A stretch of 64,000 bases of DNA from a virus (taxonomy: Duplodnaviria > Caudoviricetes): IMG/VR virus record IMGVR_UViG_3300024297_000001. One strand, 5' to 3'. This document shows, piece after piece, positions 12,760-28,919 of this stretch (position 1 is its first letter; the number at the start of each line of letters is the position of its first letter). A program made the translations under genes and the position numbers. The notes under the pieces were generated by a model. That model was not told where the DNA came from. It ran no database searches and saw nothing but the letters and a program-made list of their open reading frames with translations.

Positions 12760-12761
12760 CG

Positions 12762-12768
12762 ATAAATA
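12762..12768 (+). promoter_or_regulatory. T4-late-type box ATAAATA
   Basis: Intergenic, upstream of SD AAGGGG and ATG 12793. Confidence 0.6.
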
Positions 12769-12792
12769 CTAACAATGAAGGGGTAATATACT

Positions 12793-14271
12793 ATGGCATA
12801 CATTATTAACAAAACCGACGGTAGCCAGATTGCAGTAGTTGAAGACGGTACAGTCAATCAAACTACTGATCTTAAACTTGTTGGTAAAAATTACGCTGGT
12901 TATGGCGAGATTCAGAACGAAAACTTCGTTCATTTGCTTGAGAATTTCTCAAGTGCGAATGCTCCGTCCAGAGCAATCAGCGGACAACTTTGGTTTGACT
13001 CAGGAACGAGCAAATTAAAGTTCTATGACGGAACAAAATTTAGAACAACTGGTGGAGCAGAAGTAAGTGCAAGTCAACCATCAGGACTAACTGAAGGTGA
13101 CTTTTGGTGGGATAACGCAAACAATCAGTTGTATGCGAACACTGGTGCAGGCTTTGTACTAATTGGTCCACAATCACAAGGCGCTACAGTTACATCATTT
13201 GTAACTGATTCAGTAACAGACATTGCAAATGTACAAAGAACAGTAATCAAAGGTACTATCAATGATGAAGTAGTAGTGGTATTAAGTGCCGCTGACTTTA
13301 CAATCGACGGAACTGTCCCTAACAATGCCATAACAGGGTTCGACGTTATTCATCAGGGTATGACTTTAAAGAATACTACTAATGCACAACAAGGTGTTAC
13401 TTCAACAGGACATAGATTCTGGGGTACAGCAACAAACGCAGATAAATTAGGCGGACGTTCAGCAAGTGAATATGTTGTATCAATTCCAGGACAAGAAAGT
13501 TCATTTAACGAAGTTGTAAGATTTGCAGATGCAGGATTTACAGTTGGTGATTCAAATGACTTATCAGTTAAAATTGAAAACGGTAACCAAGCAGTTATTA
13601 GTAACGATGTTGGTACTGTAATTAGATTTAAAGTTGATAATGCATCAGCACAATCAACAGAGCCAGTACAGTTTAAAGCAGAGGGTATTTTCCCAGGTGC
13701 TAATACAACTTTTGACATTGGTTCAAGTGCATTAAAATTTAGCAACATGTGGGCAACTACATTTAACGGTACGGCAACTTCTGCTAACGCAATGGTTGTT
13801 GGATCTAATAACAGAACAGCAAGTACTTCAGCAACTAACGACACAGTAGCAGTTAGAGATTCAAGCGGTGACTTGTTTGCTAACAACTTCCAAGGTGTTG
13901 CAAGTTCGGCAAAATACGCTGACTTGGCAGAGAAATATACTACAGACGATCAGTATCCAGTAGGAACTATTATGACAATTGGTACAGATGAAGGTAGTGA
14001 AGCAACTTGGTGCCCAATGACAGAGATGCCAATTGGTGTTATTAGTACTAAACCAGCATACTTAATGAATGCAGACGCAGAAGGACAAGCGATTGCACTT
14101 AAAGGTAGAGTACCAGTAAGAGTTATAGGACCTGTTAACAAAGGTGACAAACTATACGTAGGTGCTAACGGTACTGCACAAAAAGCAGACGAAGGCGACT
14201 TGGTTGGTATTGCTTTAGAATCAAATGATAGACACGAAGAAAAATTAGTTGAAGCGTTCTTGAAAGTATAA
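12793..14271 (+). CDS. Tail fibre protein (paralog 3) with C-terminal chaperone/peptidase-like domain
   Basis: Same N-terminal module; C-terminus YADLAEKY...IGVIST.PAYLMN...IALKGRVPV.V.G.V.KGD is typical of autocleaving intramolecular-chaperone-like fibre ends. Confidence 0.75.
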   Translation: MAYIINKTDGSQIAVVEDGTVNQTTDLKLVGKNYAGYGEIQNENFVHLLENFSSANAPSRAISGQLWFDSGTSKLKFYDGTKFRTTGGAEVSASQPSGLTEGDFWWDNANNQLYANTGAGFVLIGPQSQGATVTSFVTDSVTDIANVQRTVIKGTINDEVVVVLSAADFTIDGTVPNNAITGFDVIHQGMTLKNTTNAQQGVTSTGHRFWGTATNADKLGGRSASEYVVSIPGQESSFNEVVRFADAGFTVGDSNDLSVKIENGNQAVISNDVGTVIRFKVDNASAQSTEPVQFKAEGIFPGANTTFDIGSSALKFSNMWATTFNGTATSANAMVVGSNNRTASTSATNDTVAVRDSSGDLFANNFQGVASSAKYADLAEKYTTDDQYPVGTIMTIGTDEGSEATWCPMTEMPIGVISTKPAYLMNADAEGQAIALKGRVPVRVIGPVNKGDKLYVGANGTAQKADEGDLVGIALESNDRHEEKLVEAFLKV

Positions 14272-14284
14272 GAGGAAGTAACAA

Positions 14285-15205
14285 ATGGCAATAATTACAG
14301 CGGCAAGATATAACTCGTTACAAGCAACAGTTGAAAACATAATGGGTAATGGTGCGGGTCAGTTCGGTTATGGACAGACTTTAGCGTCATCACAGGTTGC
14401 GGCGGACACTGTAATTGATTCAGGACACATGTCCACACTTTACACAGATTTAATTAATGCAAGAGTACACCAAGTAGGTAGTGTTCCTAATTCAGTTGCA
14501 ACGGTAAGTGCAGGTGATGTTATTGAGGAAGATGCTACAGACACAGGTACTGCAAGAGGTATTTTACAATACGAAGATTTAGCAAGTACTGTTGAAACTG
14601 ACAAAGCATTAATTTATACTGCTGATACTTCACAAAGTACAATCACTGCAAACAAAACAAACAGTTCATCAACTAATGCATGGGCAGGAGTACGTGACCA
14701 TATTGTTACAGTAACGTTTGCAACAGCAGATGCACGTAGACACTTTTTTAATGCAGGTGGTGAAATTAGATTTACTGCTGACTTAGATCCAGCGGCTTCA
14801 AATGGTAAGAACAACGATTGGAACTCATTGTTAGCAAACATGGGAACAGTTACATTTAAATCAAATAACTGTCCATCATTAGGTTCAAGTCCAGGAACAA
14901 GTTTCAATATTGGTAACTTTGACATGACTGCTACAGACCAACTTGTATTCCAAAAAGATGGTACAGGTGTATATGCAGAAAACGATTACAATATTAAAGC
15001 AAAAGAACTTAATTCAACTACAATACAGTTTACTATTCAATTTAGAGATGATGACGTAGGTGATGACACAAACAACGATGGTGCATTCAACCCACAAGAT
15101 GAATCAGTAACAGGTACATTACAAAGTGTGGTTGGAGAAAGACTACCTACAGGGTCAAGAGTTTCTTTAACTTCCCCAACATTTAATACCACAAATACTC
15201 TTTAA
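14285..15205 (+). CDS. Virion structural protein (tail-associated)
   Basis: SD GAGGAAG; Thr/Ser/Asp-rich; last gene of the structural run. Confidence 0.55.
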   Translation: MAIITAARYNSLQATVENIMGNGAGQFGYGQTLASSQVAADTVIDSGHMSTLYTDLINARVHQVGSVPNSVATVSAGDVIEEDATDTGTARGILQYEDLASTVETDKALIYTADTSQSTITANKTNSSSTNAWAGVRDHIVTVTFATADARRHFFNAGGEIRFTADLDPAASNGKNNDWNSLLANMGTVTFKSNNCPSLGSSPGTSFNIGNFDMTATDQLVFQKDGTGVYAENDYNIKAKELNSTTIQFTIQFRDDDVGDDTNNDGAFNPQDESVTGTLQSVVGERLPTGSRVSLTSPTFNTTNTL

Positions 15206-15220
15206 TACCTTAGTACGTAG

Positions 15221-15226
15221 TAAATA
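15221..15226 (+). promoter_or_regulatory. Late-type TAAATA box 5 nt before ATG (predicted leaderless)
   Basis: TAAATA-ttact-ATG(15232); no SD upstream. Confidence 0.6.
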
Positions 15227-15231
15227 TTACT

Positions 15232-15576
15232 ATGGACGAGAAACTATCAAAAGCCTTAGAATTTGGAAACTATTCTGCAACTCTTAATAACCAAAGAAGA
15301 ATGTTGAAAGAAAAGTTTGCTACAGAGTCAATGTATTTCTTTGCAGGTGGACAATTTACAATTACTAAAGAGTTGATTAACTATGTTTACACATTAAAAT
15401 CAACAGAGCAAGATTCATTTGTATTAATTGATGATACAGATACTCCGATCTTAATTGAAGACATATCAGACTTTTACAATAATATTACAGACAAATACTA
15501 TGTTGCACTAAACAACTATCACAAAGATTACAGCAAACTTGAAAAAAGTAGATCTGTAGACGGATTGGTGGAATGA
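15232..15576 (+). CDS. Hypothetical protein (first gene of the enzyme island)
   Basis: 114 aa ORF, ATGA overlap with the next gene. Confidence 0.7.
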   Translation: MDEKLSKALEFGNYSATLNNQRRMLKEKFATESMYFFAGGQFTITKELINYVYTLKSTEQDSFVLIDDTDTPILIEDISDFYNNITDKYYVALNNYHKDYSKLEKSRSVDGLVE

Positions 15577-16394
15577 GCAGTGGAGTACTATTATTTGCAT
15601 TTAATAATGAGCAAGTGGATTATGTATCACAGGCTCAGTACCTTGCAAAAAGAATACGCAAATATTTAGACTTACCAACTACACTTGTAACAGATGATGT
15701 AGAACGTGTTGTAAAATTTTACAACGGAAAAGAAGTGTTTGACGAAATTCTTTCTTCGTCTATAGAACAAAAAAATCACAAAACATATCACGACGGAAGT
15801 TTATCTAAAAAAGTATTAGAGTTTAAGAACTTTAATAGAAGTGATAGTTACGATATAAGTCCTTATGATAGAACTCTTGTGTTAGATACGGACTACATTA
15901 TAAGTAACGACTTACTTGCACAAGCAATGAAGTTACCACATGAACTAATGATGTATAAAGACAGTATGGATATTAGTGGTTGGCGTGATACAAGTGAGTT
16001 TAAATTAATTAGTGAAACATCAATAGACTTTTGGTGGGCAACTTGTATTATATTTGACAAGTCAGAACGTAATAATGCTTTCTTTGATCTTGTAAAACAT
16101 ATAAAGAAAAATTACGAACACTATCGTAATCTATATCAAGTTACAACAACAGTATTTAGAAATGATATTGCATTTAGTATTGCAAATAACATCATGGGTT
16201 ATACAAAAGAACTGCCGGGCAAAATGGTTTATAGCACAGGCAAAGATATATTACAAGAAATTAAAGACGATGAATTAACTTTACTTGTTGAAAAACAAGA
16301 TCGTGTAGGAGAATATACACTAATAAAGTCAAAAGGTATAAATTTGCATGTAATGAATAAGTTTAGTTTAGGAAGGGAGATTACAAATGCCTAA
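15573..16394 (+). CDS. GT-A fold glycosyltransferase (GT8-like)
   Basis: DxD motif in SPYDRTLVLDTDYII; N-terminal GVLLFAFNN strand. Confidence 0.7.
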   Translation: MSSGVLLFAFNNEQVDYVSQAQYLAKRIRKYLDLPTTLVTDDVERVVKFYNGKEVFDEILSSSIEQKNHKTYHDGSLSKKVLEFKNFNRSDSYDISPYDRTLVLDTDYIISNDLLAQAMKLPHELMMYKDSMDISGWRDTSEFKLISETSIDFWWATCIIFDKSERNNAFFDLVKHIKKNYEHYRNLYQVTTTVFRNDIAFSIANNIMGYTKELPGKMVYSTGKDILQEIKDDELTLLVEKQDRVGEYTLIKSKGINLHVMNKFSLGREITNA

Positions 16395-17202
16395 TTTTAC
16401 CTTCCTTGCACAAAACAGCGAATACAATTACATACGTCAAGCAGAACTATTAGCATTAAGCATTAGGAAAACTAATCCAGATAGTAAAATTTGTTTAATT
16501 ACCAACGATGATGTAGAACAAAAAGAATTGTTTGATGACATTGTACCTATACCATGGGAAGATAAAGCAGAAGAACACAAGTGGAAAGTACAAAACCGTT
16601 GGAAGATTTACCATGCTTGTCCATATGATGAAACTTTTGTATTAGACACAGACATGATTGTATGTCATGACCTAACACACTGGTGGAACCTAATGCAAAA
16701 TTACGAAGTTTTTTACACAACAAACGTTACAGATTATAAACAAAGTAAACTTAATGTAACATATTATAGAAAAATGTTTGAAGCAAACAACTTACCAGAC
16801 ATTTATGTTGCACTACACTATTTTAAGAAGTCTGACTTTGCAAAAAAGTTTTATGAAGCGTTAGAATACACAATGAAAAATTGGGAAGAGTGTTATACAA
16901 AGTATGCACCAAAGAAAATGCAAAAGATTGCCAGTGTAGATGTGTGTACAAGTATTGCAATTAAGATGTTAGGTGTAGAAAACAAAGTTACAAACAAGAC
17001 TTTAGCATTTCCTACGTTCGTTCATATGAAGCCTTATGCACAAACTTGGAATACACAAACAAAGAAGTGGCAAGATCGTGTAGGTTGTTTTGTTAATGAC
17101 GATGCACAGTTAAGAGTAGGCGGGCATTTACAAGACACAGTGTTTCATTATACTGAAAAAGATTTTACGGATAGATTTTATGACAGATATGCACAAAGAT
17201 GA
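16387..17202 (+). CDS. GT-A fold glycosyltransferase (paralog of the previous gene)
   Basis: CPYDETFVLDTDMIV DxD motif; FVHMK C-terminal His motif. Confidence 0.7.
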   Translation: MPNFTFLAQNSEYNYIRQAELLALSIRKTNPDSKICLITNDDVEQKELFDDIVPIPWEDKAEEHKWKVQNRWKIYHACPYDETFVLDTDMIVCHDLTHWWNLMQNYEVFYTTNVTDYKQSKLNVTYYRKMFEANNLPDIYVALHYFKKSDFAKKFYEALEYTMKNWEECYTKYAPKKMQKIASVDVCTSIAIKMLGVENKVTNKTLAFPTFVHMKPYAQTWNTQTKKWQDRVGCFVNDDAQLRVGGHLQDTVFHYTEKDFTDRFYDRYAQR

Positions 17203-17743
17203 AGTACAAACATATATAGAGTTTGATCCTAAGACAGGAAACATTCAAACTATTACCTCCTATCCTCAGAACCAACACATAGAAGTTAATCCTGATGATG
17301 TAAAAGGATTATTAGATGGCTCAGAAAACTTCTTACACTACAAAGTACAGTTCAACCCAACTTCAACCATGTATGAACTTGTCAATGTGTATGATGAAGA
17401 ACGTTTCGAATACAATGTACACAACAGCATATACAAAGTACCTACAGATATTGAAGCAGACATTAATATTATAAAAAATTACAAAACAAAAACATGGCAA
17501 CTACAGTTTGGCAAACTATTTTCCAAAACATTAGAAAAGAATAGTGTAACATTACAAACTGTTAAAAATTTTAGCGTAGTTGCTAAGAACGATCCTTATA
17601 AACTACATAGAACATTACGATTTAATTTAGCAGATACAAATTTAGACTTGCAATTTGATCAAGATGATGCTATAATAACACAATACGACTTATATACTAA
17701 CAAGTTGTTCAACAGTTACAGCACAGGAGTCATTAATGATTAA
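17180..17743 (+). CDS. Hypothetical protein
   Basis: 187 aa ORF coupled to its neighbours; no motif recognised. Confidence 0.6.
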   Translation: MTDMHKDEVQTYIEFDPKTGNIQTITSYPQNQHIEVNPDDVKGLLDGSENFLHYKVQFNPTSTMYELVNVYDEERFEYNVHNSIYKVPTDIEADINIIKNYKTKTWQLQFGKLFSKTLEKNSVTLQTVKNFSVVAKNDPYKLHRTLRFNLADTNLDLQFDQDDAIITQYDLYTNKLFNSYSTGVIND

Positions 17744-18623
17744 GATTGCAGAACAAGATATTATTTTTTTAAGTTACGATGAGCCTAATGCTGAAGAAAA
17801 CTGGGCAGACTTAAAAAGAAAAGTGCCGTGGGCAAAACGTGTACATGGTGTAGAAGGTAGTGATGCCGCACACAAGGCATGTGCAGACTTATCAGAAACT
17901 AAACACTTCGTTACAGTTGACGGAGACACTATTGTTGATCCTAAATTTATAGAAGTAGTATTAGACTTAGACAAGTTAGGTGTAGATGACGACTATCAGT
18001 TTAGTTGGTGTGGTAAGATTGACGTCAACGGACTAATGTATGGTAACGGTAGTTTAAAAATGTGGACTAAAGAGTTTGTTAAGAATATGAAAACTCATGA
18101 AAACACAGATGGTTCTGATGATACACAAATAGAATTCTGTTACTTTGACAACTATTATCAACTCAACGAAAATTATAGTAAAAGTATTATTACTGCTACT
18201 CCACACCAAGCATGGCGAGCAGGATTTAGAGAAGGTGTTAAGATGTCATTGGATAGAGGAACACCTATTAATGACTTGAAAGAGTTATGGTGGCAGAATT
18301 ATCATAGATTGTTAGTCTGGATGATGGTAGGTGCAGATGTTGAAAACGGTTTATATAGTATTCTTGGTGCAAGACAAGGTTGTTATAAAACAATGTGTAC
18401 CGAATGGGATCATACGCAAACAAGAGATTTTTTATACTTAAATAAACTGTGGGAAGAAAGCGATTTTCACAGTGGTAATGTTGTGGATCGTATTACAGAT
18501 ATAGGAACTTTAATTAGAAATGAATTAGATGTTCCTCTTGCAGTACATCCATATGATAATGAACAAAGTGAATTTTTTAAAACTGTTTACAAAAATAGTG
18601 ATAGGGTGATTAGACGAAAATGA
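17736..18623 (+). CDS. Glycosyltransferase-like protein (GT-A, DGD motif)
   Basis: DIIFLSYDEPNAEENW...HFVTVDGD; paralog of 25332-26021. Confidence 0.6.
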   Translation: MIKIAEQDIIFLSYDEPNAEENWADLKRKVPWAKRVHGVEGSDAAHKACADLSETKHFVTVDGDTIVDPKFIEVVLDLDKLGVDDDYQFSWCGKIDVNGLMYGNGSLKMWTKEFVKNMKTHENTDGSDDTQIEFCYFDNYYQLNENYSKSIITATPHQAWRAGFREGVKMSLDRGTPINDLKELWWQNYHRLLVWMMVGADVENGLYSILGARQGCYKTMCTEWDHTQTRDFLYLNKLWEESDFHSGNVVDRITDIGTLIRNELDVPLAVHPYDNEQSEFFKTVYKNSDRVIRRK

Positions 18624-18865
18624 AAATTAGGTACTATCGAAATATCAAGGGGTGGCGTTGGTTAGGATTTTTTCTTGCCATGGCATCTGCTTATATTTTA
18701 AGTAGTGGTAATCCTGACTACCAAGTTATGGGTTGGAGTGTTGCATGTTTTAGTTGTGGCATTTGGATTTACATGGGTTGGAAAGACGGAGATACACCAC
18801 GTGCATTGATGGAACTGTTTTATTTGGTACTTGCTATACGTGGAATTATTAACTGGATTCAATGA
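18620..18865 (+). CDS. Small membrane protein (about 3 hydrophobic segments)
   Basis: 81 aa, hydrophobic and Trp-rich; ATGA overlaps on both sides. Confidence 0.6.
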   Translation: MKIRYYRNIKGWRWLGFFLAMASAYILSSGNPDYQVMGWSVACFSCGIWIYMGWKDGDTPRALMELFYLVLAIRGIINWIQ

Positions 18866-20229
18866 GCGAAGTAGAAAGAATAAAGCAGATAATGCCAGAG
18901 GTCGACAAGATCTCTCCTACCTTCTGCTTGGCTAAATGGCACCACGTAACAATATATTTGCAAACAGGCGAAACACACAGTTGTTATCACCCAGCACCAC
19001 ATAAGATTCCACTTGAAGGATTAATTGACAATCCAAGTCAACTACACAATACACCGCAAAAGAAACAAGAACGTAAACAAATGCTTGAAGGCGAAAAGCC
19101 AAGCGGTTGTCAATACTGTTGGAATATTGAATGTATGGGTAAAGACTATATTAGTGATAGGCATATTAAAACAGCAAGTATATACACACCTAAACGTATT
19201 GAAGAAATAAAAAGTAATCCATGGGATTATAATATTAATCCAGAATACATTGAAATAAATTTTAGTAATGAATGTAATTTTAAATGCGGTTACTGCCATC
19301 CTAAGTTTAGCAGTAGATACTATAACGAAATTAAAAAAGAAGGTCCATATACAGATGTATCTGCACACCGTAATGACATTGATTGGTTTGAATTATATGA
19401 AGAAGAAACTAATCCTTATGTAGAAGCATGGTGGAAGTGGTGGCCAGAAGTTAGTAAGACACTAAACATCTTACGTGTTACAGGCGGCGAACCTTTAATG
19501 CACAAAAGTACTTGGCGTTTGTTTGACGAACTTGAAGCAAATCCTAAACCACATATTCAAATTGAAGTAAACAGTAACATGGGTGTTAAGGAATCTCTTG
19601 TACACAAACTTGTAGAACGTGTAAAAGAACTTAAAGCAAAGAACTGTATAAGAAGTTTCAAATTATACACAAGCATAGATACTTGGGGACCTAAAGCAGA
19701 ATACACAAGACGTGGATTAGATATTGAACTATGGGAAAAGAATTTAGATTACTATCTAACAGAACTTGGTTATCCTGTAACGTTTATGATTACATTTAAC
19801 TTGTTTGCTGTAACGAGTTTTGATTTATTGCTTAATAAAATACTTGAATGGCGTAAGAAGTACACAAGATCTAATGCAGGTGTACAATGGCAAAACATTA
19901 GATTTGATACTCCTTATCTAAAAGAGCCAATACAGTTTGACATGAACATATTACCTAAGGATCAGTTTGTTCCGTACATGACAAGGCACCTACAGTTCAT
20001 CGGAGACAACGTTGATGACAATGACCGCCATAAGTTTAGTTTGTTGGAGTATGAGCGTTTTAGACGTGTTGTAGACTATATGCGTACAACTACTTACGAT
20101 GATAAGAAGTTAGCAATAGGACACAAAACTTTTTATAATTGGTTTACGCAATATGATAAACGTAGTGGTAGTAGTATTGTTAAAACGTTTCCGGAACTTA
20201 AAGAATTTTATGATTCTTGTAGATCTTAG
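18862..20229 (+). CDS. Radical SAM protein with N-terminal SPASM/twitch-like Cys cluster
   Basis: CNFKCGYC (CxxxCxxC), TGGEP; N-terminal FCLAKWHH...HSCYH...GCQYCW. Confidence 0.9.
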   Translation: MSEVERIKQIMPEVDKISPTFCLAKWHHVTIYLQTGETHSCYHPAPHKIPLEGLIDNPSQLHNTPQKKQERKQMLEGEKPSGCQYCWNIECMGKDYISDRHIKTASIYTPKRIEEIKSNPWDYNINPEYIEINFSNECNFKCGYCHPKFSSRYYNEIKKEGPYTDVSAHRNDIDWFELYEEETNPYVEAWWKWWPEVSKTLNILRVTGGEPLMHKSTWRLFDELEANPKPHIQIEVNSNMGVKESLVHKLVERVKELKAKNCIRSFKLYTSIDTWGPKAEYTRRGLDIELWEKNLDYYLTELGYPVTFMITFNLFAVTSFDLLLNKILEWRKKYTRSNAGVQWQNIRFDTPYLKEPIQFDMNILPKDQFVPYMTRHLQFIGDNVDDNDRHKFSLLEYERFRRVVDYMRTTTYDDKKLAIGHKTFYNWFTQYDKRSGSSIVKTFPELKEFYDSCRS

Positions 20230-21217
20230 AAGCAAGAATTTGATTGTGTGTTAACACAGCATTCATTTCATTTAACATTTCTTTACAGTCATCAATACTT
20301 AATAACTTAATGCTATCTAACAAGTAACGTATTTTGTTCATACGTTTTGTATGATCTTCTTCAGTATCGTAACTTTCGTCCCAAGTAAATGTTTTAAATC
20401 CTAACTCACGAATGTATTCTAATGTATAAGGTGGTGCAACGCAAACAAAAGGACGTTTATGTATCATTGCGTTAACAGTTTTCTCACTAAAGTTTCCTGT
20501 AGGCTGATAGAAACGTGTTTCGTTTGCTACAACGCAAAAACTTTTTTCATAGTAAGCAGATAAACTTGCTGGACCGTTTAGTTGTCCTATAGGCCATTTT
20601 TTATGTGCAGGGTCTATACTTTGTAATTCTGTATCAATGCTTAATGCTGGATCACTAAATGCCCAACTATAGTAACCTGGTGTATCTTGTAAGTGTTCTA
20701 TTATTAAACGTCTGTGTAAACTATAACGCCAATTAGGACAAATAAAGTGTTTATCAATATTGTTGTTAACATTAACAATACCGCCGTTGAATTGATTGCG
20801 TAAAAATATATCAAAGCATTTAAGTTCAAACGGATAGTAGTCTATATGTTTGTTTACATTGTAATCACAAGTGTATACAGTAATTTCTGCATTTAATTTT
20901 TTACTAAATTCTAAAATACTATCTAATTCATCAGCACGTAATTTTTCTCCGCCTTGAAATTCGCTAAAGAAATCTCTGTTATGCTTTTTACCATCTTCGT
21001 ATAATGTTAATGGTTCGTACAAATATATGTTAAGTTTTTTAAGTTTCTTTAACATTTTAGGAGTAAGAGGAAACTTATCAAAGTCTATATTATTTGTACC
21101 TGTGTATATAATAAAAGGATCTTTAGGAAACCAATGTTCAAATAGTTCAGTAAACATTGAACCTAACTTTGTAGATTTTACAGGAAGGTTACCCCAGAAT
21201 ATATCTTGTTTGAACAT
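20198..21217 (-). CDS. Glycosyltransferase-like protein (GT-B type C-terminal half)
   Basis: SFCVVANET...FSEKTVNAMIHKRPFV...LGFKTF..WDESYD resembles GT10/exostosin-like phage proteins. Confidence 0.5.
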   Translation of the reverse strand: MFKQDIFWGNLPVKSTKLGSMFTELFEHWFPKDPFIIYTGTNNIDFDKFPLTPKMLKKLKKLNIYLYEPLTLYEDGKKHNRDFFSEFQGGEKLRADELDSILEFSKKLNAEITVYTCDYNVNKHIDYYPFELKCFDIFLRNQFNGGIVNVNNNIDKHFICPNWRYSLHRRLIIEHLQDTPGYYSWAFSDPALSIDTELQSIDPAHKKWPIGQLNGPASLSAYYEKSFCVVANETRFYQPTGNFSEKTVNAMIHKRPFVCVAPPYTLEYIRELGFKTFTWDESYDTEEDHTKRMNKIRYLLDSIKLLSIDDCKEMLNEMNAVLTHNQILASKIYKNHKIL

Positions 21218-21711
21218 TACCAGTAAGTGCCGGTGATTTGTAAAGTGTATCTTGGATCAACTCCAATGTTGCTGGCCGCATGTGGAGTATCAGGTTGCCA
21301 TAAAACATATTCACCTGCTTTCCAATTTACAAATGCTTTGCTATCTACTTCAAAGTAGTGTCCTGGTTTCCAGTCTTCTAAGAAAACAATAGCACGTCTT
21401 ACTTCGTTACGTTCTTTGTTAAACACTTTACAATATGTATTATAATGATCAACGTGTGTAGGCATGATATCTAACGTATCCATTTTGTAAAATACAAAAC
21501 CAGGATTATGTAAATTAAGTAATTGTGCTACTTGAATTGCATAGTCAGGCATTGTATTACGACTGTCATACATTTTGCCTGTTGTATTTTCATGCGTATA
21601 GCCTTGCTTACGCCAAGCGTCAGACTCAGCACCTGTAATAGGTTGTCTAACGTAATTGAAGTATTTGTATCCTTCGTCCCATAATACAGGACATTTACCT
21701 TTAGTCCACAT
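21217..21711 (-). CDS. 2OG-Fe(II) oxygenase (Asp/Asn hydroxylase-like cupin)
   Basis: PTHVD (HxD) ... PHAASN (distal His) ... RYTLQITG. Confidence 0.7.
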   Translation of the reverse strand: MWTKGKCPVLWDEGYKYFNYVRQPITGAESDAWRKQGYTHENTTGKMYDSRNTMPDYAIQVAQLLNLHNPGFVFYKMDTLDIMPTHVDHYNTYCKVFNKERNEVRRAIVFLEDWKPGHYFEVDSKAFVNWKAGEYVLWQPDTPHAASNIGVDPRYTLQITGTYW

Positions 21712-22669
21712 CTCTTTTTGTATCCAATGTTACGCAGTGAAATCCACCGCCAAGTGTACGTTGATGTCGCATTGGTAACATAGCACACTCTATTCCTTGG
21801 TGCTCAAGAAGGTGTCTTAGATCCTCTTGGTGTTCTTCTAATGCAACTAACTTTGTATTTACACTAAACAAGTTCATGTTAATCCACGTACTTGCATTAC
21901 ACCATTTAGGATAGTGGCCAATGTCTACAGGTTCAGGACACCATATAATATCCCAATTTCTAAATGGCTCAGGTAAATCTTCTCTTACTTTTATTCTACT
22001 TGGATTAACAAGTAATAACCCTTCACGTAAAAATGCAACAGTACTGTCAATATGCATGTAACTATAAACATTTTGTAATAGGTTTACTTTAGCAGTAGCA
22101 CCTAAGGCACCTTGTAATAAATTTGCACCTAACTTGTTTGCACTATTACTAACCAAGTATAACAGTTGGTCGTTTGCACGAATTATATTCGCGGCATCAA
22201 AAGCAGGACTGTATTCATTAAGTGCTAAAATATCTTTATTGCCAATACATTCTTTATTGTATAATTGACTTTCGTTGAAGCAACGTATTTCTTTTGGGTT
22301 ATCTAAATGATCTTCAAATGCTCTCCACTCGCCTTTTCTTGCACGTATAGGCATTGGTGTAGCAAGTGTTAGGTTACCATGTATAAACACACTGTCTCGA
22401 GGACAGTAATTATAGTAATGACAATCTGTTTTCTCTGGACGTACAACTTCTACACTTTCTGCTTGTAAAAATTTTACAAATGTTTCTAAGTCTTCATTTG
22501 CTTCTTCAATAACTTTACTTGGGTAAGGACCTTTGATAATTTCTGTTTCGTCTTTTTTATCTGCAAAATTAACACAACGTAAACTAATATCTATATCATA
22601 AGGTATCTTGGCTTTGTCTGCAATGCCAACAATTACTTTTCTAAGTTGTCCCCATTCGTTTGTGTTCAT
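21701..22669 (-). CDS. Amidinotransferase (glycine / inosamine-phosphate amidinotransferase family)
   Basis: NEWGQLRKVIVG, YCPRD, FDAAN, HID and C-terminal GGFHCVTLD (catalytic Asp/His/Cys). Confidence 0.9.
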   Translation of the reverse strand: MNTNEWGQLRKVIVGIADKAKIPYDIDISLRCVNFADKKDETEIIKGPYPSKVIEEANEDLETFVKFLQAESVEVVRPEKTDCHYYNYCPRDSVFIHGNLTLATPMPIRARKGEWRAFEDHLDNPKEIRCFNESQLYNKECIGNKDILALNEYSPAFDAANIIRANDQLLYLVSNSANKLGANLLQGALGATAKVNLLQNVYSYMHIDSTVAFLREGLLLVNPSRIKVREDLPEPFRNWDIIWCPEPVDIGHYPKWCNASTWINMNLFSVNTKLVALEEHQEDLRHLLEHQGIECAMLPMRHQRTLGGGFHCVTLDTKRDVD

Positions 22670-23250
22670 TTAAAAACCTTCATGTCTGGAAGATATGGAT
22701 AATCATTACTGCTCCATTCCTTTGTTGGTTCAGTAACGTTTTCTAATTTTTCAATACCAAGTTGTGCAGTTTCTGGAGTCATATAATAATGATATCCTAT
22801 GTATTGAATGTCTTGTTCGCCCCATGGCTTATCATCTGTTCTACCATCATGTGCCATTGCTTTTAATACTGCATAGTCTGTTTCATTAGGACATAATATT
22901 GCACCGCCTCTACCTAAACTTAACATTTTCTTATGTTGAAAACTCAAACACTTATAGGTGTTAGGCATGTAACTATTACGTTTGAAACTAACAGCACCGT
23001 CTATAATTCTTGTACCACCTAATACATATTCTTCATTCCAAGAAGCATCAACAAACTCCCAATCAATGTTTAACTTCATTAATGTAAATGGAATACTAAT
23101 ATACGTTCTTGTAGGTATCTTTACGTGGTTAGGCTTTAGATATCGTAAACAAAGTTCAATAGAATGGGTACAACTATCCGTTGCAACGGCAAATGGTGCA
23201 TTATAATACTCTGCAATGCGTTTTTCGAACTCTTTCACGGTTTCAAACAT
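22666..23250 (-). CDS. DegT/DnrJ/EryC1/StrS PLP aminotransferase, short form (194 aa)
   Basis: FEKRIAEYYNAPFAVATDSCT, IIDGAVSF, LSFQHKKML..GRGGAI, GYHYYMT; start reassigned to ATG 23250. Confidence 0.8.
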   Translation of the reverse strand: MFETVKEFEKRIAEYYNAPFAVATDSCTHSIELCLRYLKPNHVKIPTRTYISIPFTLMKLNIDWEFVDASWNEEYVLGGTRIIDGAVSFKRNSYMPNTYKCLSFQHKKMLSLGRGGAILCPNETDYAVLKAMAHDGRTDDKPWGEQDIQYIGYHYYMTPETAQLGIEKLENVTEPTKEWSSNDYPYLPDMKVFK

Positions 23251-23255
23251 ACACA

Positions 23256-23263
23256 TATTTATA
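23256..23263 (-). promoter_or_regulatory. Perfect T4 late consensus TATAAATA, 5 nt before ATG
   Basis: Minus strand reads TATAAATA-tgtgt-ATG(23250). Confidence 0.7.
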
Positions 23264-23274
23264 TGCGTAGTTAA

Positions 23275-23280
23275 TAAGTA
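23275..23280 (+). promoter_or_regulatory. Variant late box TAAGTA (divergent partner)
   Basis: aTAAGTA in the divergent intergenic region, ahead of the 23348 operon. Confidence 0.4.
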
Positions 23281-23347
23281 ATAGTGTGAGTGAAATTATT
23301 AAATTATCCGTATGGTCTGAAAAATATCAAAATATTGGAGAGAACGC

Positions 23348-24532
23348 ATGAATATAGGATTTTTAGGAGTCGGTAAACTCGGTATACCATGTGCAGAAGA
23401 AATAGTCAAAAAAGGTCATACAGTTTTTGGTTATGATACTGCTAAAATTACCAGCGAATTAATTATACAAAAGCCTACAATCAAAGATGCAGTAACTGGT
23501 GCAGACATTGTGTTTGTTGCAGTACCAACACCGCATCACGAAGATTATGACGGTAAACGTCCTACAAGTCATTTACCACCAAAAGATTTTAATTACGATA
23601 TTGTAAATGATGTTCTTGAAGAAGCAGACATGCATATGACAAAGGATCAATTGCTTGTTCTTATCAGTACAGTATTACCAGGTACAACACGTAGAGAATT
23701 TGTACCACGTGTTACACATACACGTTTTGTATATAACCCATATCTAATTGCAATGGGTACTGTGGGTTGGGATATGATTAATCCTGAGATGGTAATGATA
23801 GGAACTGACGATGGTAGCGAAACAGGTGATGCAAAACAATTAAAAGAATTTTATCAAAGCATTATGGAAAATGACCCACGCTATGTTATAGGAACATATG
23901 ACGAGTGCGAATGTATCAAAGTGTTTTACAATACATTTATTTCTACTAAATTAAGTTTTGTTAACATGATTCAAGATGTTGCACAACGTCAAGGTAACAT
24001 TAATGTTGACGTAGTAACAAAAGCCTTAGCAGAAAGTACACAACGTATAATGAGTCCTGCATATATGACAGCAGGCATGGGTGATGGTGGTAGTTGTCAC
24101 CCAAGAGATAATATTGCTTTACGTTACATGGCAAAAGAATTAAATTTAGAATATGATATTTTTGATAACATTATGAAAGCAAGAGAAATACAAGCAAAAA
24201 ATCTTGCAAAGTTTGTTGTTGAAACAAAAAAGAAATATGGCGGAAGTATTTTCTTAAATGGTATATCATACAAACCAGGCGTACCTTACATTGACGGAAG
24301 TTATGCACTACTTGTTGATCACTATGTTAAGGAACTTGGACACAGTATGATTTACATTGATCCACTTGCAAGTGAAATGCCAAGTAGTCAAGTAAGCCTT
24401 GGAGGTATTATTTTACTTGCACACCCAACCCCGTACTTAGAATACTCAACAGACTCAGTGTTTATTGATCCGTGGAGAAAAATGAAACCTAATTCTAAGT
24501 ATCTTGTCATACAATACGGAAACACAAGATAA
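23348..24532 (+). CDS. UDP-glucose/GDP-mannose dehydrogenase family
   Basis: GFLGVGKLG Rossmann motif, VAVPTP, STVLPGTT, K.FYNTFIS.K, GGSCHPRD. Confidence 0.9.
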   Translation: MNIGFLGVGKLGIPCAEEIVKKGHTVFGYDTAKITSELIIQKPTIKDAVTGADIVFVAVPTPHHEDYDGKRPTSHLPPKDFNYDIVNDVLEEADMHMTKDQLLVLISTVLPGTTRREFVPRVTHTRFVYNPYLIAMGTVGWDMINPEMVMIGTDDGSETGDAKQLKEFYQSIMENDPRYVIGTYDECECIKVFYNTFISTKLSFVNMIQDVAQRQGNINVDVVTKALAESTQRIMSPAYMTAGMGDGGSCHPRDNIALRYMAKELNLEYDIFDNIMKAREIQAKNLAKFVVETKKKYGGSIFLNGISYKPGVPYIDGSYALLVDHYVKELGHSMIYIDPLASEMPSSQVSLGGIILLAHPTPYLEYSTDSVFIDPWRKMKPNSKYLVIQYGNTR

Positions 24533-25344
24533 TGTTTTACACTAAGGATCATCCGTTATTATATTTTCCTGAAATAGCAGGTAAAAGTTTACAATGGTAT
24601 TGTGGTGACGATTTAGAAAACTACAATCAGTACAACAAAGAAGGTTGGGAGTATCATAATACTGCTGATAAGTTAGAATACAACTTTAACAGTCTTGGAT
24701 ATCGTACAAAAGAATTAACGGGTCTTAATAACGATTATATTTTAGTGTTCGGGTGCAGTTATACTGAAGGCGTAGGTTTATACGAAGAACAAATATGGTG
24801 TAATAAAATTAGCAAGATGTATGATATAGACGTAATAAACTTAGCCAAAGCAGGTACAGGACCTGATATTGTTGCGTTAAATACACAATTATTCATAAAG
24901 AACAAATTTGTACTTCCTAAATGCGTCTTAATTCAATGGCCACAATCGTCACGAAAAAGTTTTGCATACACTGAAAAGAAATTGTTTACTAATCAAATAA
25001 GATTAGAAGATAGGAATATTATGTTCCTTCCAGACGGAACTGAAGAAGAATACGAAATGATGGACTCAGTTTGGTACCACAAACGTTGGGTTCATGAACA
25101 AGGACAAATGAATTATGAGAATTTGTATCATCTAAATAGTGTAAACAATATATGGAACGCACTTGGTGTGCCTGTACATAATTGGACATTCCAAGCAGAC
25201 TTTAAAACAAAGTATGACAAAGATATGGTACAAACAGTAAAAACAAAGATGACTGGTCGTGCAAGAGATGAGGCCCATGACGGAGAAAGCATACACGACC
25301 AAGTTGTCGCACAAATAAAGGATAAAGTAAAATGTATGATATAG
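24532..25344 (+). CDS. SGNH/GDSL-like protein
   Basis: FGCSYTEG (GxS block), INLAKAG, late D.AHDG. Confidence 0.5.
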   Translation: MFYTKDHPLLYFPEIAGKSLQWYCGDDLENYNQYNKEGWEYHNTADKLEYNFNSLGYRTKELTGLNNDYILVFGCSYTEGVGLYEEQIWCNKISKMYDIDVINLAKAGTGPDIVALNTQLFIKNKFVLPKCVLIQWPQSSRKSFAYTEKKLFTNQIRLEDRNIMFLPDGTEEEYEMMDSVWYHKRWVHEQGQMNYENLYHLNSVNNIWNALGVPVHNWTFQADFKTKYDKDMVQTVKTKMTGRARDEAHDGESIHDQVVAQIKDKVKCMI

Positions 25345-26021
25345 TCTTCATAAGTTACGGCGAACCAAACGCTGATGAAAACTGGAAACATATTAAGCAA
25401 ATGTTTCCTATGGCGAAACGTGTAAAAGATGTTAAAGGTTTACATCAAGCACACATTGCCGCGGCTAAAAAATGTTTTACAAAAATGTTCTGGGTTATTG
25501 ATGCTGATGCAGAGTTAATGCCAGACTTTGATTTTAATTTTGAGGTTTCCGAGTGGGATTTAGAAACAGTGCATGTATGGCGAAGTATAAATCCGATCAA
25601 CGACTTGGAATACGGGTATGGAGGTGTAAAGTTATTACCGCGATCACTCACACTGAACATGGACACTTCCATGCCCGACATGACTACAAGTATCAGTGAT
25701 AAGTTCAAAGCAATGCCAGAGATAAGTTGCGTAACAGGATTTAACACTGATCCTTTGAGTACTTGGCGTGGAGCATTTAGAGAATGTGCAAAATTAGCAA
25801 GTAAAACTATTCCAGGACAAGTAGATGAAGAAACAGAGAAGCGTTTGGAAACATGGCTTACTGTTGGTGCTGAAAGACAGTACGGAAAGATTGCAATGCA
25901 CGGAGCGGCATGTGGTAAGCAATTTGGAGAACACTATAGAGGCAATGTAGAAGCACTTGCAATGTTAAATGATTTTGATTATTTAGAAGAGGAGTTTAAT
26001 GAACACAAAGATTCCTTTTAA
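25332..26021 (+). CDS. Glycosyltransferase-like protein (GT-A, DAD motif)
   Basis: YDIVFISYGEPNADENW...WVIDADA; paralog of 17736-18623. Confidence 0.6.
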   Translation: MYDIVFISYGEPNADENWKHIKQMFPMAKRVKDVKGLHQAHIAAAKKCFTKMFWVIDADAELMPDFDFNFEVSEWDLETVHVWRSINPINDLEYGYGGVKLLPRSLTLNMDTSMPDMTTSISDKFKAMPEISCVTGFNTDPLSTWRGAFRECAKLASKTIPGQVDEETEKRLETWLTVGAERQYGKIAMHGAACGKQFGEHYRGNVEALAMLNDFDYLEEEFNEHKDSF

Positions 26022-26958
26022 GGATATTGTCAGCCTTGGACAAAAGACAATGCTGGATACTAATCTATTCAGCGTTAGTTGGATCCTCGGCAGGTTTTGT
26101 AATTACAAGTGTAGTTACTGTTGGCCTTATGCTAACACTGACAAGCCAGACTATCAGGAATTAGAAATCTATAAAACATCTATTGATGAAATTAAGAAAC
26201 AAGCAAAAGCAAATGGCTTTGACAAGTTTCATTTTAGTTTTAGTGGAGGAGAGCCTACAGCATACAAAGGCTTTTTAGATTTAGTTAATCACTATGAAGA
26301 TTATGAAAGTGAATACCTAAGCATACACATGACAAGTAATTGTAGTCCAGCAAAGAAATGGTGGAAGAAGTTTTTAGATGTTACAGATGTTATGGACAGA
26401 AGAAGTATTACAGCAAGTTTTCATGCAGAATTTGCAAATGAAAAAGAATTCGGAGATAAACTTTTATATCTCCAAGACGAAGGTGTACTTGTAACTATTA
26501 ATCAAGTTATGGTACCCGAACTATGGGAGGAATATTATGCCAGAAGTAAAAGATTTATTGAACGGGGTTTACACGTTACTCTTAAGCCTCAGTCTGATCC
26601 TACCGCTTCTTTTGTGGTTGATGGTTATACCGAGGAACAAAAAGAAATATTGCGTACCGAAAGCGAACAATCGGTCCATCAAGTATCGCTCAAAGATGTT
26701 AATGGAGTAGAATACAGTATTGACCAAGCAGAAAGATTAAATGCTTTTGGTTTTAATAAATTTAAAGGTTGGGAATGTAATAGCGGATATCAAAGTTGTA
26801 TAATTAGAAACAATGAAGTTAAACGTAGTTACAGTTGCCATGATACACCATTAGGAACATTAACTGAAGGGTTCAGTTTGTTTGATAAGCCAATGCCTTG
26901 TATTACACCAAGTTGTGTAAGCAGTGCAGATAGTAAAATACCAAAGAGAAAAATATGA
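25999..26958 (+). CDS. Radical SAM protein with C-terminal Cys cluster
   Basis: CNYKCSYC, SGGEP; C-terminal WECNSG...SC...PC.TPSC. Confidence 0.9.
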   Translation: MNTKIPFKDIVSLGQKTMLDTNLFSVSWILGRFCNYKCSYCWPYANTDKPDYQELEIYKTSIDEIKKQAKANGFDKFHFSFSGGEPTAYKGFLDLVNHYEDYESEYLSIHMTSNCSPAKKWWKKFLDVTDVMDRRSITASFHAEFANEKEFGDKLLYLQDEGVLVTINQVMVPELWEEYYARSKRFIERGLHVTLKPQSDPTASFVVDGYTEEQKEILRTESEQSVHQVSLKDVNGVEYSIDQAERLNAFGFNKFKGWECNSGYQSCIIRNNEVKRSYSCHDTPLGTLTEGFSLFDKPMPCITPSCVSSADSKIPKRKI

Positions 26959-27707
26959 AAATAGGAATAGCAGGATACGGATATGTCGGTAAAGCCATTG
27001 CCGAATCTATGAAAGACAAATACGAAGTGCTAATTAACGATCCAGCACTTGGTCATAAAGCAAGTTTTAAAGAAGTACAGGCACTTATAGTGTGTGTAAG
27101 CACACCAAGAAGTTCAGCAGGTTATTGTGTAATGGATAATGTGTATCAGGTAATAGAAAAAGCATCTAATGAGATTCCTATACTAATTAAAAGCACAATT
27201 AGTCTTGAAGGTTGGCGTATGCTTAAAGATACGTTTCCTGAAAAGGAAATAACATTCAGTCCAGAGTTTTTAACTGCCGCAAATGCAAACTCAGACTTTG
27301 CAAACACGCAACAAATTTTACTTGGTGGAGATAATACACAGTTTTGGTCAGGATTTTTTGTAGACTTACTTGGTACTGTTGATGTAAAGATTGCAGATCC
27401 AGAAGATCTTGTAATAGCCAAGTATGTACGTAACAGTTATCTTGCATTAAAGGTTACATATTTTAATCAGTTGTATGATTTCTGTGAAAAAGCAGGTGTA
27501 GACTTTGAACAAGTAAGGAAATATGTTGCAGATGACTCTCGTATAGGATACAGTCATACTAATGTAACAAAAGAACGTGGATTTGGTGGGCATTGTTTTC
27601 CTAAAGACGTAGATGCGTTCTTACATCAAGCAAAAGGATATAATACTGAACTTTCACTGCTTGAAGAAGCAGTTAAATATAATAGTAAGATTAGAAATGA
27701 AAATTGA
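26955..27707 (+). CDS. NDP-sugar dehydrogenase, short form lacking the C-terminal domain
   Basis: GIAGYGYVG, CVSTP, IKST, SPEFL, KYVRNSYLALK, GGHCFPKD; only 250 aa. Confidence 0.8.
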   Translation: MKIGIAGYGYVGKAIAESMKDKYEVLINDPALGHKASFKEVQALIVCVSTPRSSAGYCVMDNVYQVIEKASNEIPILIKSTISLEGWRMLKDTFPEKEITFSPEFLTAANANSDFANTQQILLGGDNTQFWSGFFVDLLGTVDVKIADPEDLVIAKYVRNSYLALKVTYFNQLYDFCEKAGVDFEQVRKYVADDSRIGYSHTNVTKERGFGGHCFPKDVDAFLHQAKGYNTELSLLEEAVKYNSKIRNEN

Positions 27708-28305
27708 TATTCAAGATATTAAGTTCTGGATGGACGCAATTCGCAATAGCGAAGATAAAGATCGTACATTAGAAACTTTCTGGGGTGGTCAAATACAATC
27801 CAAGTTATGGTTGATTGAAACTGTCGCTGAAAAAAACAAAATGATCCGAAATGCTGAAATTGTTATACATGGAGGTTGGAATGGATTGTTAGCAAGTATG
27901 CTATTCAACAGTGAAATAGGTATTAAGAAAGTTGTAAGTGTTGATGTTGATCCTGTATGCAAAGAAATTGCAACTACAGTAAACAAGAGATACGAAATGG
28001 AAGGTAAGTTTGAAGCAGTAACCTGCGATATGGTAGATTACGAATACACAGCAGAACCATACATTGTAATTAATACAAGTTGCGAACATATTACACAAGA
28101 CAAATACAAAAAGTGGTTAGCAAAAGTTCCTGATTCAGCACAAGTTGTTGTACAAAGTAATGACTACTATGAATTAGAAGAACATATTAACTGTTGTAAG
28201 AACTTAGAACAGTTTGCAAGACGAAGTTTGTTAGATGTAGATATTAAAGACGAAATAGAATTACCCAAATATAAACGTTTTATGGTTATAGGAAAGAAAA
28301 AATGA
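27697..28305 (+). CDS. Class I SAM-dependent methyltransferase-like protein
   Basis: IVIHGGWNG motif I, SVDVDP motif II, VINTSCEH; start reassigned to ATG 27697. Confidence 0.6.
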   Translation: MKIDIQDIKFWMDAIRNSEDKDRTLETFWGGQIQSKLWLIETVAEKNKMIRNAEIVIHGGWNGLLASMLFNSEIGIKKVVSVDVDPVCKEIATTVNKRYEMEGKFEAVTCDMVDYEYTAEPYIVINTSCEHITQDKYKKWLAKVPDSAQVVVQSNDYYELEEHINCCKNLEQFARRSLLDVDIKDEIELPKYKRFMVIGKKK

Positions 28306-28919
28306 TTCACAGACTTACACAATACGGTCAACTTATAGAATTAGACATCACAACAGATGCTGAGGCAATGATTGCTTGGGCAAATGAATTTGATTGGGTA
28401 AAATATAATCCACGTAAGGATATTAATCGTTGGGGTTTAAGTATTACAAGTTTAGATGGCGGTATTACAGGTGTACCAGACTTAGATAGTTTGTATGAAT
28501 ATAACAAAGAAAACAAAACAGGATATAACGAAAAAGATTTTAATGTGCCTACACCAGTTCTAAACAAACAAATAGAAGAAGTGTTAGAACCTTGGAAGGA
28601 CAATTACTATAGAACACACTTTTTAAAGTTTGGTCCAGGCGGATTCTTTCCTCCACATAGAGATTGGAACTACAGTTCAGGTAGAGCAGACAGTTTTAGA
28701 TTGATAATGCCTTTGCGTAATGTTAATCCACCTTATTTTAATTTTGTATTAGAAGATAAAATGCTACATTGGGAAGTAGGTAGACTATACTTTGTAGATA
28801 CTTTAAAAATGCACTACCTATTCAATAGTGGCTTTAATGATAGTTACTGGTTAATTGTAAATGTTGATCTAAATCCAGACACTGTTAATGCTACACTTGG
28901 GAGATTAAATCAAAAGTAA
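28302..28919 (+). CDS. 2OG-Fe(II) oxygenase (Asp/Asn hydroxylase-like)
   Basis: FPPHRD (HxD), DTLKMHYLFN. Confidence 0.65.
   Translation: MIHRLTQYGQLIELDITTDAEAMIAWANEFDWVKYNPRKDINRWGLSITSLDGGITGVPDLDSLYEYNKENKTGYNEKDFNVPTPVLNKQIEEVLEPWKDNYYRTHFLKFGPGGFFPPHRDWNYSSGRADSFRLIMPLRNVNPPYFNFVLEDKMLHWEVGRLYFVDTLKMHYLFNSGFNDSYWLIVNVDLNPDTVNATLGRLNQK

Follow-up and report, generated by a model that had tools for sequence, protein, structure and literature searches.

A minus-strand cassette encoding a StrB1-like amidinotransferase and a miniature DegT protein in a phage modification island, with a possible role in guanidino amino-sugar synthesis

The 64,000 nucleotides of a marine giant phage, the tailed-phage record IMGVR_UViG_3300024297_000001 (Duplodnaviria; Caudoviricetes; IMG/VR), called here the window, include a cassette of four minus-strand open reading frames (ORFs) that fill positions 20198-23263. 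In the order of transcription these ORFs, named here genes A to D, encode 196, 322, 164 and 339 amino acids (coordinates 23256-22666, 22669-21701, 21711-21217 and 21217-20198), and their ends overlap by 4 nt (A/B), 11 nt (B/C) and 1 nt (C/D). All the other genes between 12793 and 32694 lie on the plus strand, and both the GC and the AT skew switch sign across 20-24 kb, indicating that the cassette at 20198-23263 is truly inverted. At its 3' end it shares 32 nt with the 3' end of a convergent radical SAM gene, and 91 nt separate its 5' end from a divergent nucleotide-sugar dehydrogenase gene. The first-pass annotation of this DNA had proposed a four-gene minus-strand operon with its own promoter box, and this was borne out, the four overlapping ORFs occupying exactly this interval. 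It had also named the products as a DegT aminotransferase, an amidinotransferase, an oxygenase and a glycosyltransferase: the last three names hold by scores and folds, whereas the first protein proved to be a half-size form whose activity is putative.

Gene B (21701-22669, minus strand, 322 amino acids) is predicted to be a full-length StrB1-type L-arginine amidinotransferase, an assignment based on PDB and profile scores, catalytic residues and a tree of homologues. It has no Pfam match. A phmmer search of the PDB aligned its residues 4-319 with StrB1 (1bwd) at an E-value of 2e-57, further matches being HsvA (3e-34), AGAT (1e-28) and SxtG (2e-25); a profile built from 15 homologues scored 248 bits against StrB1, 150 against HsvA, 148 against AGAT and 126 against SxtG. 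Residues D92, D158, H206, D208, R225 and C312 of gene B correspond to D108, D179, H227, D229, R246 and C332 of StrB1, and all of them are invariant in the 15 homologues. C312, H206 and D158 make up the Cys-His-Asp triad (C407, H303 and D254 in AGAT); D92 and D208 presumably bind the guanidinium group and R225 the carboxylate, as judged from the AGAT and StrB1 structures. The catalytic and arginine-binding residues hold in homologues from phages and bacteria with as little as 43% identity. In AGAT an insertion forms the lid helix H9 (PMC4887976). The alignment has gaps at this insertion for StrB1 and for the phage gene B profile alike. Fritsche et al. in 1998 reportedly described StrB1, without the AGAT lid helix, as taking a bulky sugar-like acceptor.

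Other identities of gene B were considered and rejected. JGI automatic naming labels many of its homologues DDAH, and the first-pass annotation had raised a grouping with arginine deiminase or DDAH as the competing assignment; no such PDB chain was retrieved at E<=10 with the single sequence or at E<=0.001 with the profile, and gene B scored with StrB1 and not closely with glycine amidinotransferase. A creatine pathway (amidinotransferase plus guanidinoacetate methyltransferase, GAMT) was discarded because the methyltransferase-like ORF of the surrounding island (27613-28305) is unlike any solved GAMT.

The placement of gene B combines the ranked PDB scores with a tree of homologues labelled by genomic context, which was built without named StrB1, AGAT or CyrA sequences. 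In this maximum-likelihood tree the phage enzymes are monophyletic (100/100) and nest in a clade (97/93) whose other members are sugar-context bacterial proteins only; a relative linked to a non-ribosomal peptide synthetase (NRPS) and fusion relatives from actinomycetes branch outside this clade. The NRPS-linked relative (L036, G596:C15, 5204-10510) is about 40% identical to gene B and lies directly upstream of a 1407-amino acid NRPS on the same strand, which would be a different use of the same enzyme clade, probably directed at an amino acid. The actinomycete amidinotransferases (P0123-P0143) are fused to class-II aminoacyl-tRNA synthetase (aaRS)-like domains, of the elongation factor P (EF-P) lysine-ligase-like type, to aminoglycoside phosphotransferase (APH) kinase domains or to TauD dioxygenase domains. 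These fusions were set aside as a clue to the acceptor, being restricted to distant actinomycete proteins, with none inside the phage clade.

Gene A (22666-23250, minus strand) encodes a miniature DegT-family protein belonging to the type that depends on pyridoxal phosphate (PLP), 194 amino acids long from a conserved Met (the ORF is open from 23256, 196 amino acids). It matches Pfam PF01041 (DegT_DnrJ_EryC1) with 60 bits (cut-off 19.8) in two pieces, residues 5-71 covering positions 24-93 and residues 101-176, approximately, covering positions 187-260 of the 360 of the model. An internal beta-alpha unit and the entire C-terminal domain are missing, so that the protein falls short of the full two-domain fold-type-I architecture of approximately 360-400 amino acids. 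Within the part that is kept, K110 of the SF-x-x-K-K110 motif (SFQxKK) aligns with the Schiff-base lysine of 7b0m and 4zwv, and D27, D86, SF-x-x-K-K110, GRGG and GYHYYMTPE do not vary among 10 homologues, Bdellovibrio included, down to 43% identity. The short form recurs in more than 120 metagenome clusters of 194-216 amino acids. As read from these sequences, gene A is a conserved miniature DegT protein and not a wreck, its transaminase activity being putative; both the A and the B families are very abundant and appear to be under clear purifying selection.

Gene C (21217-21711, minus strand, 164 amino acids) encodes a double-stranded beta-helix (DSBH) protein resembling the 2-oxoglutarate (2OG)/Fe(II) oxygenases, as indicated by its invariant residues, its structural model and Foldseek. 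It has no Pfam, NCBIfam or PHROG match, and a profile search of the PDB returned AtsK alone and weakly (E 0.18). In the alignment H86-x-D88...H144 is invariant and R154, ten residues past the distal His, nearly so. The model (pLDDT 90.5) is a double-stranded beta-helix; Foldseek matched it to P4H, FtmOx1, PolD and AsqJ at E-values of approximately 1e-4, and small cupins also fit the fold. The closest Atlas clusters are viral, one of them having Asp_Arg_Hydrox in 19% of its members. The predicted DSBH, the HxD...H iron triad and a basic residue for the C5 carboxylate of 2OG are together what is expected of a 2OG/Fe(II) oxygenase fold.

Gene D (20198-21217, minus strand, 339 amino acids) has neither a Pfam match nor a sequence match in the PDB, where a profile search was also unproductive, and was assigned from its model, Foldseek, VIA and motifs as a GT-B fold glycosyltransferase with GT10-like motifs. 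The model is of moderate quality (pLDDT 75, pTM 0.74) and is predicted to have the two Rossmann-like domains of the GT-B fold; the top Foldseek matches were GT-B enzymes throughout. A VIA comparison with 48,161 chains gave Z scores of 10.3-8.8 over 210-260 aligned residues, including Gtf3 (3rhz, 10.3), FUT11 (9.9), the T4 alpha-glucosyltransferase (9.8) and FUT9 (9.7). An invariant NETR...SEK...DESYD motif is, by eye, like the GT10 signature F-x-x-x-FENS...Y-x-TEK, and the closest named Atlas clusters are GT10, with a weak score of 0.80-0.81.

The cassette is preceded by a late-promoter-type box, TATAAATA (23256-23263, minus strand), with the conserved ATG (23250) following 5 nt downstream. 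It is present as a single copy in the 64 kb compared with approximately 9 expected by chance, so that the count alone gives no enrichment. The NATAAATA core persists in the viral loci L002-L017 despite diverged flanks, constantly 5 nt before the 'MFE...' ATG (Met-3 of the window ORF and residue 1 in several homologues). The other ATAAATA copies in the window lie, in five of six cases, 18-30 nt upstream of gene starts, fibre-like genes included (copies precede the genes at 7994, 12793 and 41110), indicating that the box behaves as a late promoter of the phage. The cassette carries this late-type box, and such boxes precede structural genes in the window; its expression therefore looks late. In late promoters of the T4 type, transcription begins approximately 6 nt past the box. 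With this spacing, a box 5 nt from the ATG predicts a leaderless mRNA for gene A, whose first nucleotide would be the A of the ATG or one adjoining it, in contrast to the ordinary 18-30 nt leaders of the other boxes. The perfect promoter box of the first-pass annotation was thus confirmed in its conserved core and spacing, with the reservation that it abuts the start codon and can work only as a leaderless promoter for the Met-3 start. A 32-nt conserved intergenic element, TTTCACTCACAC...TTATTAACTACGCA / TTTCACTCACAC...AACTACGCA (23264-23295, minus strand), stands in the gap between the cassette and the dehydrogenase operon that diverges from it. With substitutions, this element is kept in the aligned upstream regions of L002-L017 except L013, and may be a shared regulatory or promoter region.

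The divergent neighbour (23348-24532, plus strand) is a nucleotide-sugar 6-dehydrogenase of the UGDH family (PF00984, PF03721 and PF03720; TIGR03026, 1.6e-45), matched by UDP-glucose and GDP-mannose dehydrogenases of the PDB at 1e-18. Its orthologue adjoins gene A in viral loci and belongs to the same operon as a short-chain dehydrogenase/reductase (SDR) and gene A in Bdellovibrio; it is a likely supplier of the sugar precursor. The convergent neighbour (18862-20229, plus strand) is an N-terminal-twitch radical SAM gene (NF033640, 309 bits, cut-off 170) which adjoins gene D in viral loci. Both neighbours belong to a conserved modification island (14285-32694, plus strand), delimited by Pfam, NCBIfam and motifs read by eye, that starts right after tail-fibre- or virion-protein-like genes (8612-14271, PHROG tail-fibre matches) and is syntenic as a whole block in at least 12 IMG/VR contigs. 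The stretch 2-7972, before the fibre genes, is taken up by a giant ORF (more than 2,650 amino acids) that runs off the window start.

Pfam scans, which took in 34 window ORFs between 7994 and 41110, identified within the island a short second nucleotide-sugar dehydrogenase, an AspH-like oxygenase and five radical SAM genes; by eye it also holds two GT8-like and two GT2-like genes and one each of SGNH-like, methyltransferase-like and SDR-like genes. Over the longer interval from 14285 to approximately 37800 there are eight radical SAM genes (two of them clear NF033640 members), three Asp/Asn-hydroxylase-like or similar oxygenases and two nucleotide-sugar dehydrogenases, one without the UDP-binding domain. 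The presence of two nucleotide-sugar dehydrogenases and approximately five glycosyltransferase-like genes makes the island fit a glycan pathway. The N-terminal SPASM/twitch radical SAM genes lie at 18862-20229, 29886-31214 and 33462-36049, with NF033640 scores of 309 and 419 bits. Among the island families listed in the first-pass annotation, these twitch radical SAM proteins are real, whereas the APH and GNAT assignments stayed below threshold: the APH-like ORF (34555-35031) reached E 0.006 and 16.8 bits, under the Pfam cut-off of 23.2, and the GNAT-type match (FeeM) reached E 0.008, also under its cut-off. No inositol-phosphate synthase, sugar-phosphate cyclase or inositol dehydrogenase was found in the Pfam scans.

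Several further genes of the island were recorded. The second dehydrogenase paralogue (26955-27707, 250 amino acids) has the NAD-binding and central domains and no C-terminal UDP-binding domain; it is kept in most relatives and absent from some (e.g. L003, L014 and L015). Two paralogous gene pairs without a Pfam match (15573-17202, 17736-18623 and 25332-26021) show, by eye, GT-A type DxD motifs of GT8-like (VLDTD) and GT2-like (VDGD / IDAD) form. Between the tail-fibre-like genes and the first glycosyltransferase-like gene, 14285-15205 encodes a Ser/Thr/Asn-rich protein of 306 amino acids without a family match, kept in relatives, which is a candidate glycosylation substrate or fibre component.

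The gene B family is large: of 7,870 matches, the best 120 are all at least 64% identical and approximately 320 amino acids long. Gene B is present in 19 IMG/VR contigs, down to 61-66% identity, and those that are long enough also hold the same cassette in inverted orientation, flanked by the island. Every viral locus of sufficient length has A and B together with a C-type gene, and most have D; the gene order differs in L001 and L020. A megablast search of 50,697 phage records with the cassette found no near-identical DNA, all matches from distant blastn of 56-64 kb were short, and Campylobacter phages have a gene B relative at 25% identity only. The cultured Synechococcus phage S-SCSM2R, a cyanomyovirus, carries homologues of B (62%) and of the miniature DegT gene A (53%, annotated as AHBA synthase) together with a C-like 2OG oxygenase of 164 amino acids, beside radical SAM and glycosyltransferase genes (ORF305-ORF310; PMC12801897). 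It differs from the window in that these genes are all co-directional and in another order, with a GT2 gene in place of the GT-B gene D. The homologues were annotated as 'antibiotic synthesis genes' without an experiment on them (PMC12801897). ORF266, a further and unrelated 'glycine amidinotransferase', was detected together with a prolyl hydroxylase-like protein in the purified virion proteome of the same phage (PMC12801897).

Conserved gene B peptide patterns were found in only 4 of 185,579 species genomes (43-48% identity), and relatives at E<=1e-30 in 4 of 401 genomes in each of the two phyla sampled. Two Bdellovibrio genomes (L022 and L024) have a radical SAM gene, UGDH (47-49%), an SDR epimerase/dehydratase and a miniature DegT gene (44%) in a run. 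In L024 this run passes directly into a D homologue (27%) and then B, and the surroundings also include GT2 glycosyltransferases, more radical SAM genes of the island type and a YdjC gene; in L022, approximately 5.5 kb separate A from B, which lies upstream, and the opposite strand carries the D homologue (28%). In a betaproteobacterial metagenome-assembled genome (MAG; L023) the B homologue belongs to a polysaccharide locus of the Wzz/Wzy type and converges with genes for a full-length DegT protein (297 bits) and a 559-amino acid SDR dehydratase, and a Bdellovibrionales MAG has an SDR gene just upstream of B. No DegT gene was found on the contigs carrying B in G596, G368 and G005, the first of these being NRPS-linked and the other two contigs too short. 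Two candidate correspondences between Bdellovibrio and the phage were dismissed: the phage gene of 270 amino acids following UGDH has no similarity to the Bdellovibrio SDR and is SGNH-like by eye, and the Bdellovibrio ORF of 161 amino acids after the miniature DegT gene is not a C homologue (hhalign probability 0.5%).

The cassette was compared with the nearest systems known. StrB1 of Streptomyces griseus (L-arginine:scyllo-inosamine-4-phosphate amidinotransferase, PDB 1bwd) shares with gene B the full-length match, the catalytic and arginine-binding residues and the missing AGAT lid, whereas the phage protein is 26 residues shorter and lies in a nucleotide-sugar and glycosyltransferase island without detectable cyclitol genes; the acceptor of gene B is probably an amino sugar and not inosamine phosphate as in StrB1. 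AGAT, CyrA, AmtA, HsvA and SxtG belong to the same superfamily and share its ping-pong chemistry via a Cys-amidino intermediate, but they are clearly more distant from gene B than StrB1 is (93-122 bits with the single sequence, 126-150 bits with the profile), and their acceptors are amino acids, polyamines or a toxin precursor, none of them linked to sugar genes. The Bdellovibrio and betaproteobacterial clusters are of the same clade as phage B (B homologues 43-51%, miniature DegT 44%, UGDH 47-49%) and also share D and three island radical SAM homologues; they differ in having a recognisable SDR epimerase/dehydratase and, in L023, a full-length DegT gene and the Wzz/Wzy export and polymerisation genes, and no gene C homologue was found in these clusters (L022, L024 and L023). 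In the ArnA/ArnB and PglF/PglE pathways, UDP-GlcA or UDP-GlcNAc is converted to a 4-keto sugar, from which a DegT enzyme makes a 4-amino sugar nucleotide that is then N-modified and transferred. The Bdellovibrio gene order UGDH-SDR-DegT matches this logic; the phage differs in having an amidinotransferase as the N-modifying enzyme where those pathways have a formyl- or acetyltransferase, a DegT protein of half size and several additional radical SAM enzymes.

These comparisons suggest that the cassette is a late sugar-tailoring module making a guanidino amino sugar for a glycan, a reading to which we give even chances and for which we infer the substrates, the order of the steps, the activity of the miniature DegT protein and the target. 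In such a pathway the divergent UGDH-type dehydrogenase would oxidise a nucleotide sugar to the uronic acid, and an SDR or an island radical SAM enzyme would produce a keto sugar. The compact PLP-dependent gene A product would then convert the keto group to an amine. C312 of gene B would take the amidino group from L-arginine, freeing ornithine, and hand it to this amine, giving a guanidino (N-amidino) sugar, and the 2OG/Fe(II) protein of gene C would hydroxylate the product or a neighbouring position. Finally, the GT-B enzyme of gene D would transfer the finished cationic sugar to an acceptor. A glycan on the virion fibre proteins is the most plausible acceptor, because the island is encoded directly behind the fibre genes; the host envelope is an alternative. 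The first-pass annotation had preferred a guanidino or amidino sugar, moved by the co-transcribed glycosyltransferase, over a free aminoglycoside, and this preference gains support from the kinship of gene B with StrB1, its sugar-context clade and the divergent dehydrogenase. The streptidine or aminocyclitol side of the same proposal fared worse, no cyclitol synthase or dehydrogenase having appeared in the Pfam scans of 34 window ORFs. Since the cyclitol genes were not found and sugar genes dominate both here and in the clade mates, the streptidine analogy holds for the enzyme family and not for the pathway, and a guanidino amino sugar in a glycan is the best reading.

A non-sugar small amine might instead receive the amidino group from gene B, be it a peptide side chain, a polyamine or one of the amino acids glycine, lysine and ornithine, the link to sugars then being no more than a shared late island; we regard this as unlikely. 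Its product would be a guanidino acid or an amidino-polyamine, to serve the infected cell or to be packaged with the virion. HsvA (PDB 5wpi) belongs to a polyamine pathway, Met205 of gene B stands at the position of AGAT Met302, and there are the approximately 40%-identical relative beside an NRPS and those fused to aaRS-like and TauD domains. AGAT and CyrA act on glycine, and AmtA on lysine (PMC4887976). However, the score of gene B against StrB1 exceeds those against AGAT and HsvA by approximately 100 bits, and the AGAT lid helix is absent from this protein; phage loci show translational coupling of gene B with a DegT relative and a glycosyltransferase, the cellular members of its own clade are all in sugar operons, and the island methyltransferase does not resemble a guanidinoacetate methyltransferase. 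An improbable explanation, to our mind, is that the module modifies the phage DNA, a sugar with or without a guanidino group being placed on a modified base by gene D acting like the T4 alpha- and beta-glucosyltransferases. Both T4 enzymes are among the best structural matches of D (Z 9.8 and 9.4), and the known pathways of thymidine hypermodification include radical SAM and PLP enzymes. Against this, the Z scores of D are equally high for GT-B enzymes acting on proteins or glycans and for fucosyltransferases, the cellular relatives lie in Wzz/Wzy and GT2 contexts and not in DNA-modification ones, the approximately five glycosyltransferase-like genes of an island located behind tail-fibre genes fit an oligosaccharide, and neither a base hydroxymethylase nor a DNA kinase was seen among the ORFs scanned.

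That the cassette genes are real and B (or A) is catalytically idle or non-enzymatic, the island making an ordinary amino- or uronic-sugar glycan without a guanidino group, could draw on the severe shortening of gene A, but it is hard to credit given that the catalytic and arginine-binding residues of B and the PLP lysine and motifs of A are all invariant down to 43% identity and that selection on these two very abundant families is clearly purifying. A streptidine-like aminocyclitol pathway could draw on the facts that StsC of the streptidine pathway is a DegT-family enzyme and that aminocyclitols are substrates of BtrN and other twitch radical SAM enzymes; StrB1 is the closest solved relative of gene B, and a weak APH-like ORF is present at 34555-35031. 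A free aminoglycoside-type antibiotic as its product, which is how the S-SCSM2R genes were annotated (PMC12801897), has only the slimmest likelihood in our estimate: no cyclitol-forming enzyme appeared in the Pfam scans of 34 window ORFs, the APH match is under its cut-off, the island is dominated by nucleotide-sugar dehydrogenases and many glycosyltransferases, polysaccharide loci are where the cellular clade mates lie, and the cassette looks late-expressed and has fibre-gene neighbours.

Several points weigh against the proposal of a guanidino amino sugar in a glycan. We know of no guanidino sugar in any glycan, and the literature searched yielded no relevant paper on natural guanidino sugars or on guanidinylation of an amino sugar for a glycan. 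Gene A is without approximately 45% of a normal DegT protein and, judged by its length, may not act as an aminotransferase. The modelled GT-B fold of gene D also resembles the T4 DNA glucosyltransferases, and the phage island is without a clear counterpart of the SDR that stands beside UGDH in Bdellovibrio. The acceptor choice of the gene B family is also plastic at approximately 40% identity, as indicated by the NRPS-linked relative and by those fused to aaRS-like, APH or TauD domains. The broader proposition that marine giant myoviruses and a few bacteria, predatory ones among them, make a guanidino amino sugar out of arginine and a nucleotide sugar, that the phages attach it late to fibre or other virion proteins, and that this is the first natural guanidinylated glycan, made with a DegT enzyme of half size and from a leaderless late transcript, is put forward as tentative, and we would not yet bet on it.

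The genes themselves have already been noticed, in the annotations of Campylobacter phages and in the S-SCSM2R paper; the guanidinylation of an amino sugar proposed here would be a new variant of amino-sugar tailoring. The A and B families each form more than 120 clusters in ocean metagenomes, at roughly 60% identity or above, and their homologues are misleadingly annotated as DDAH, glycine amidinotransferase, AHBA synthase or 'antibiotic synthesis', so that a correct assignment would re-label a common marine phage function. The miniature DegT protein is of separate enzymological interest, and so is a promoter placed for a leaderless late mRNA. The reading is testable, cultured carriers being available in S-SCSM2R (on Synechococcus WH7803) and Bdellovibrio. 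If it is true, arginine-derived guanidino groups join the acetyl, formyl, acetamidino and similar groups as amino-sugar decorations, giving permanently cationic glycans, and a cationic glycan on the virion could alter adsorption, the charge interaction with host envelopes, or recognition.

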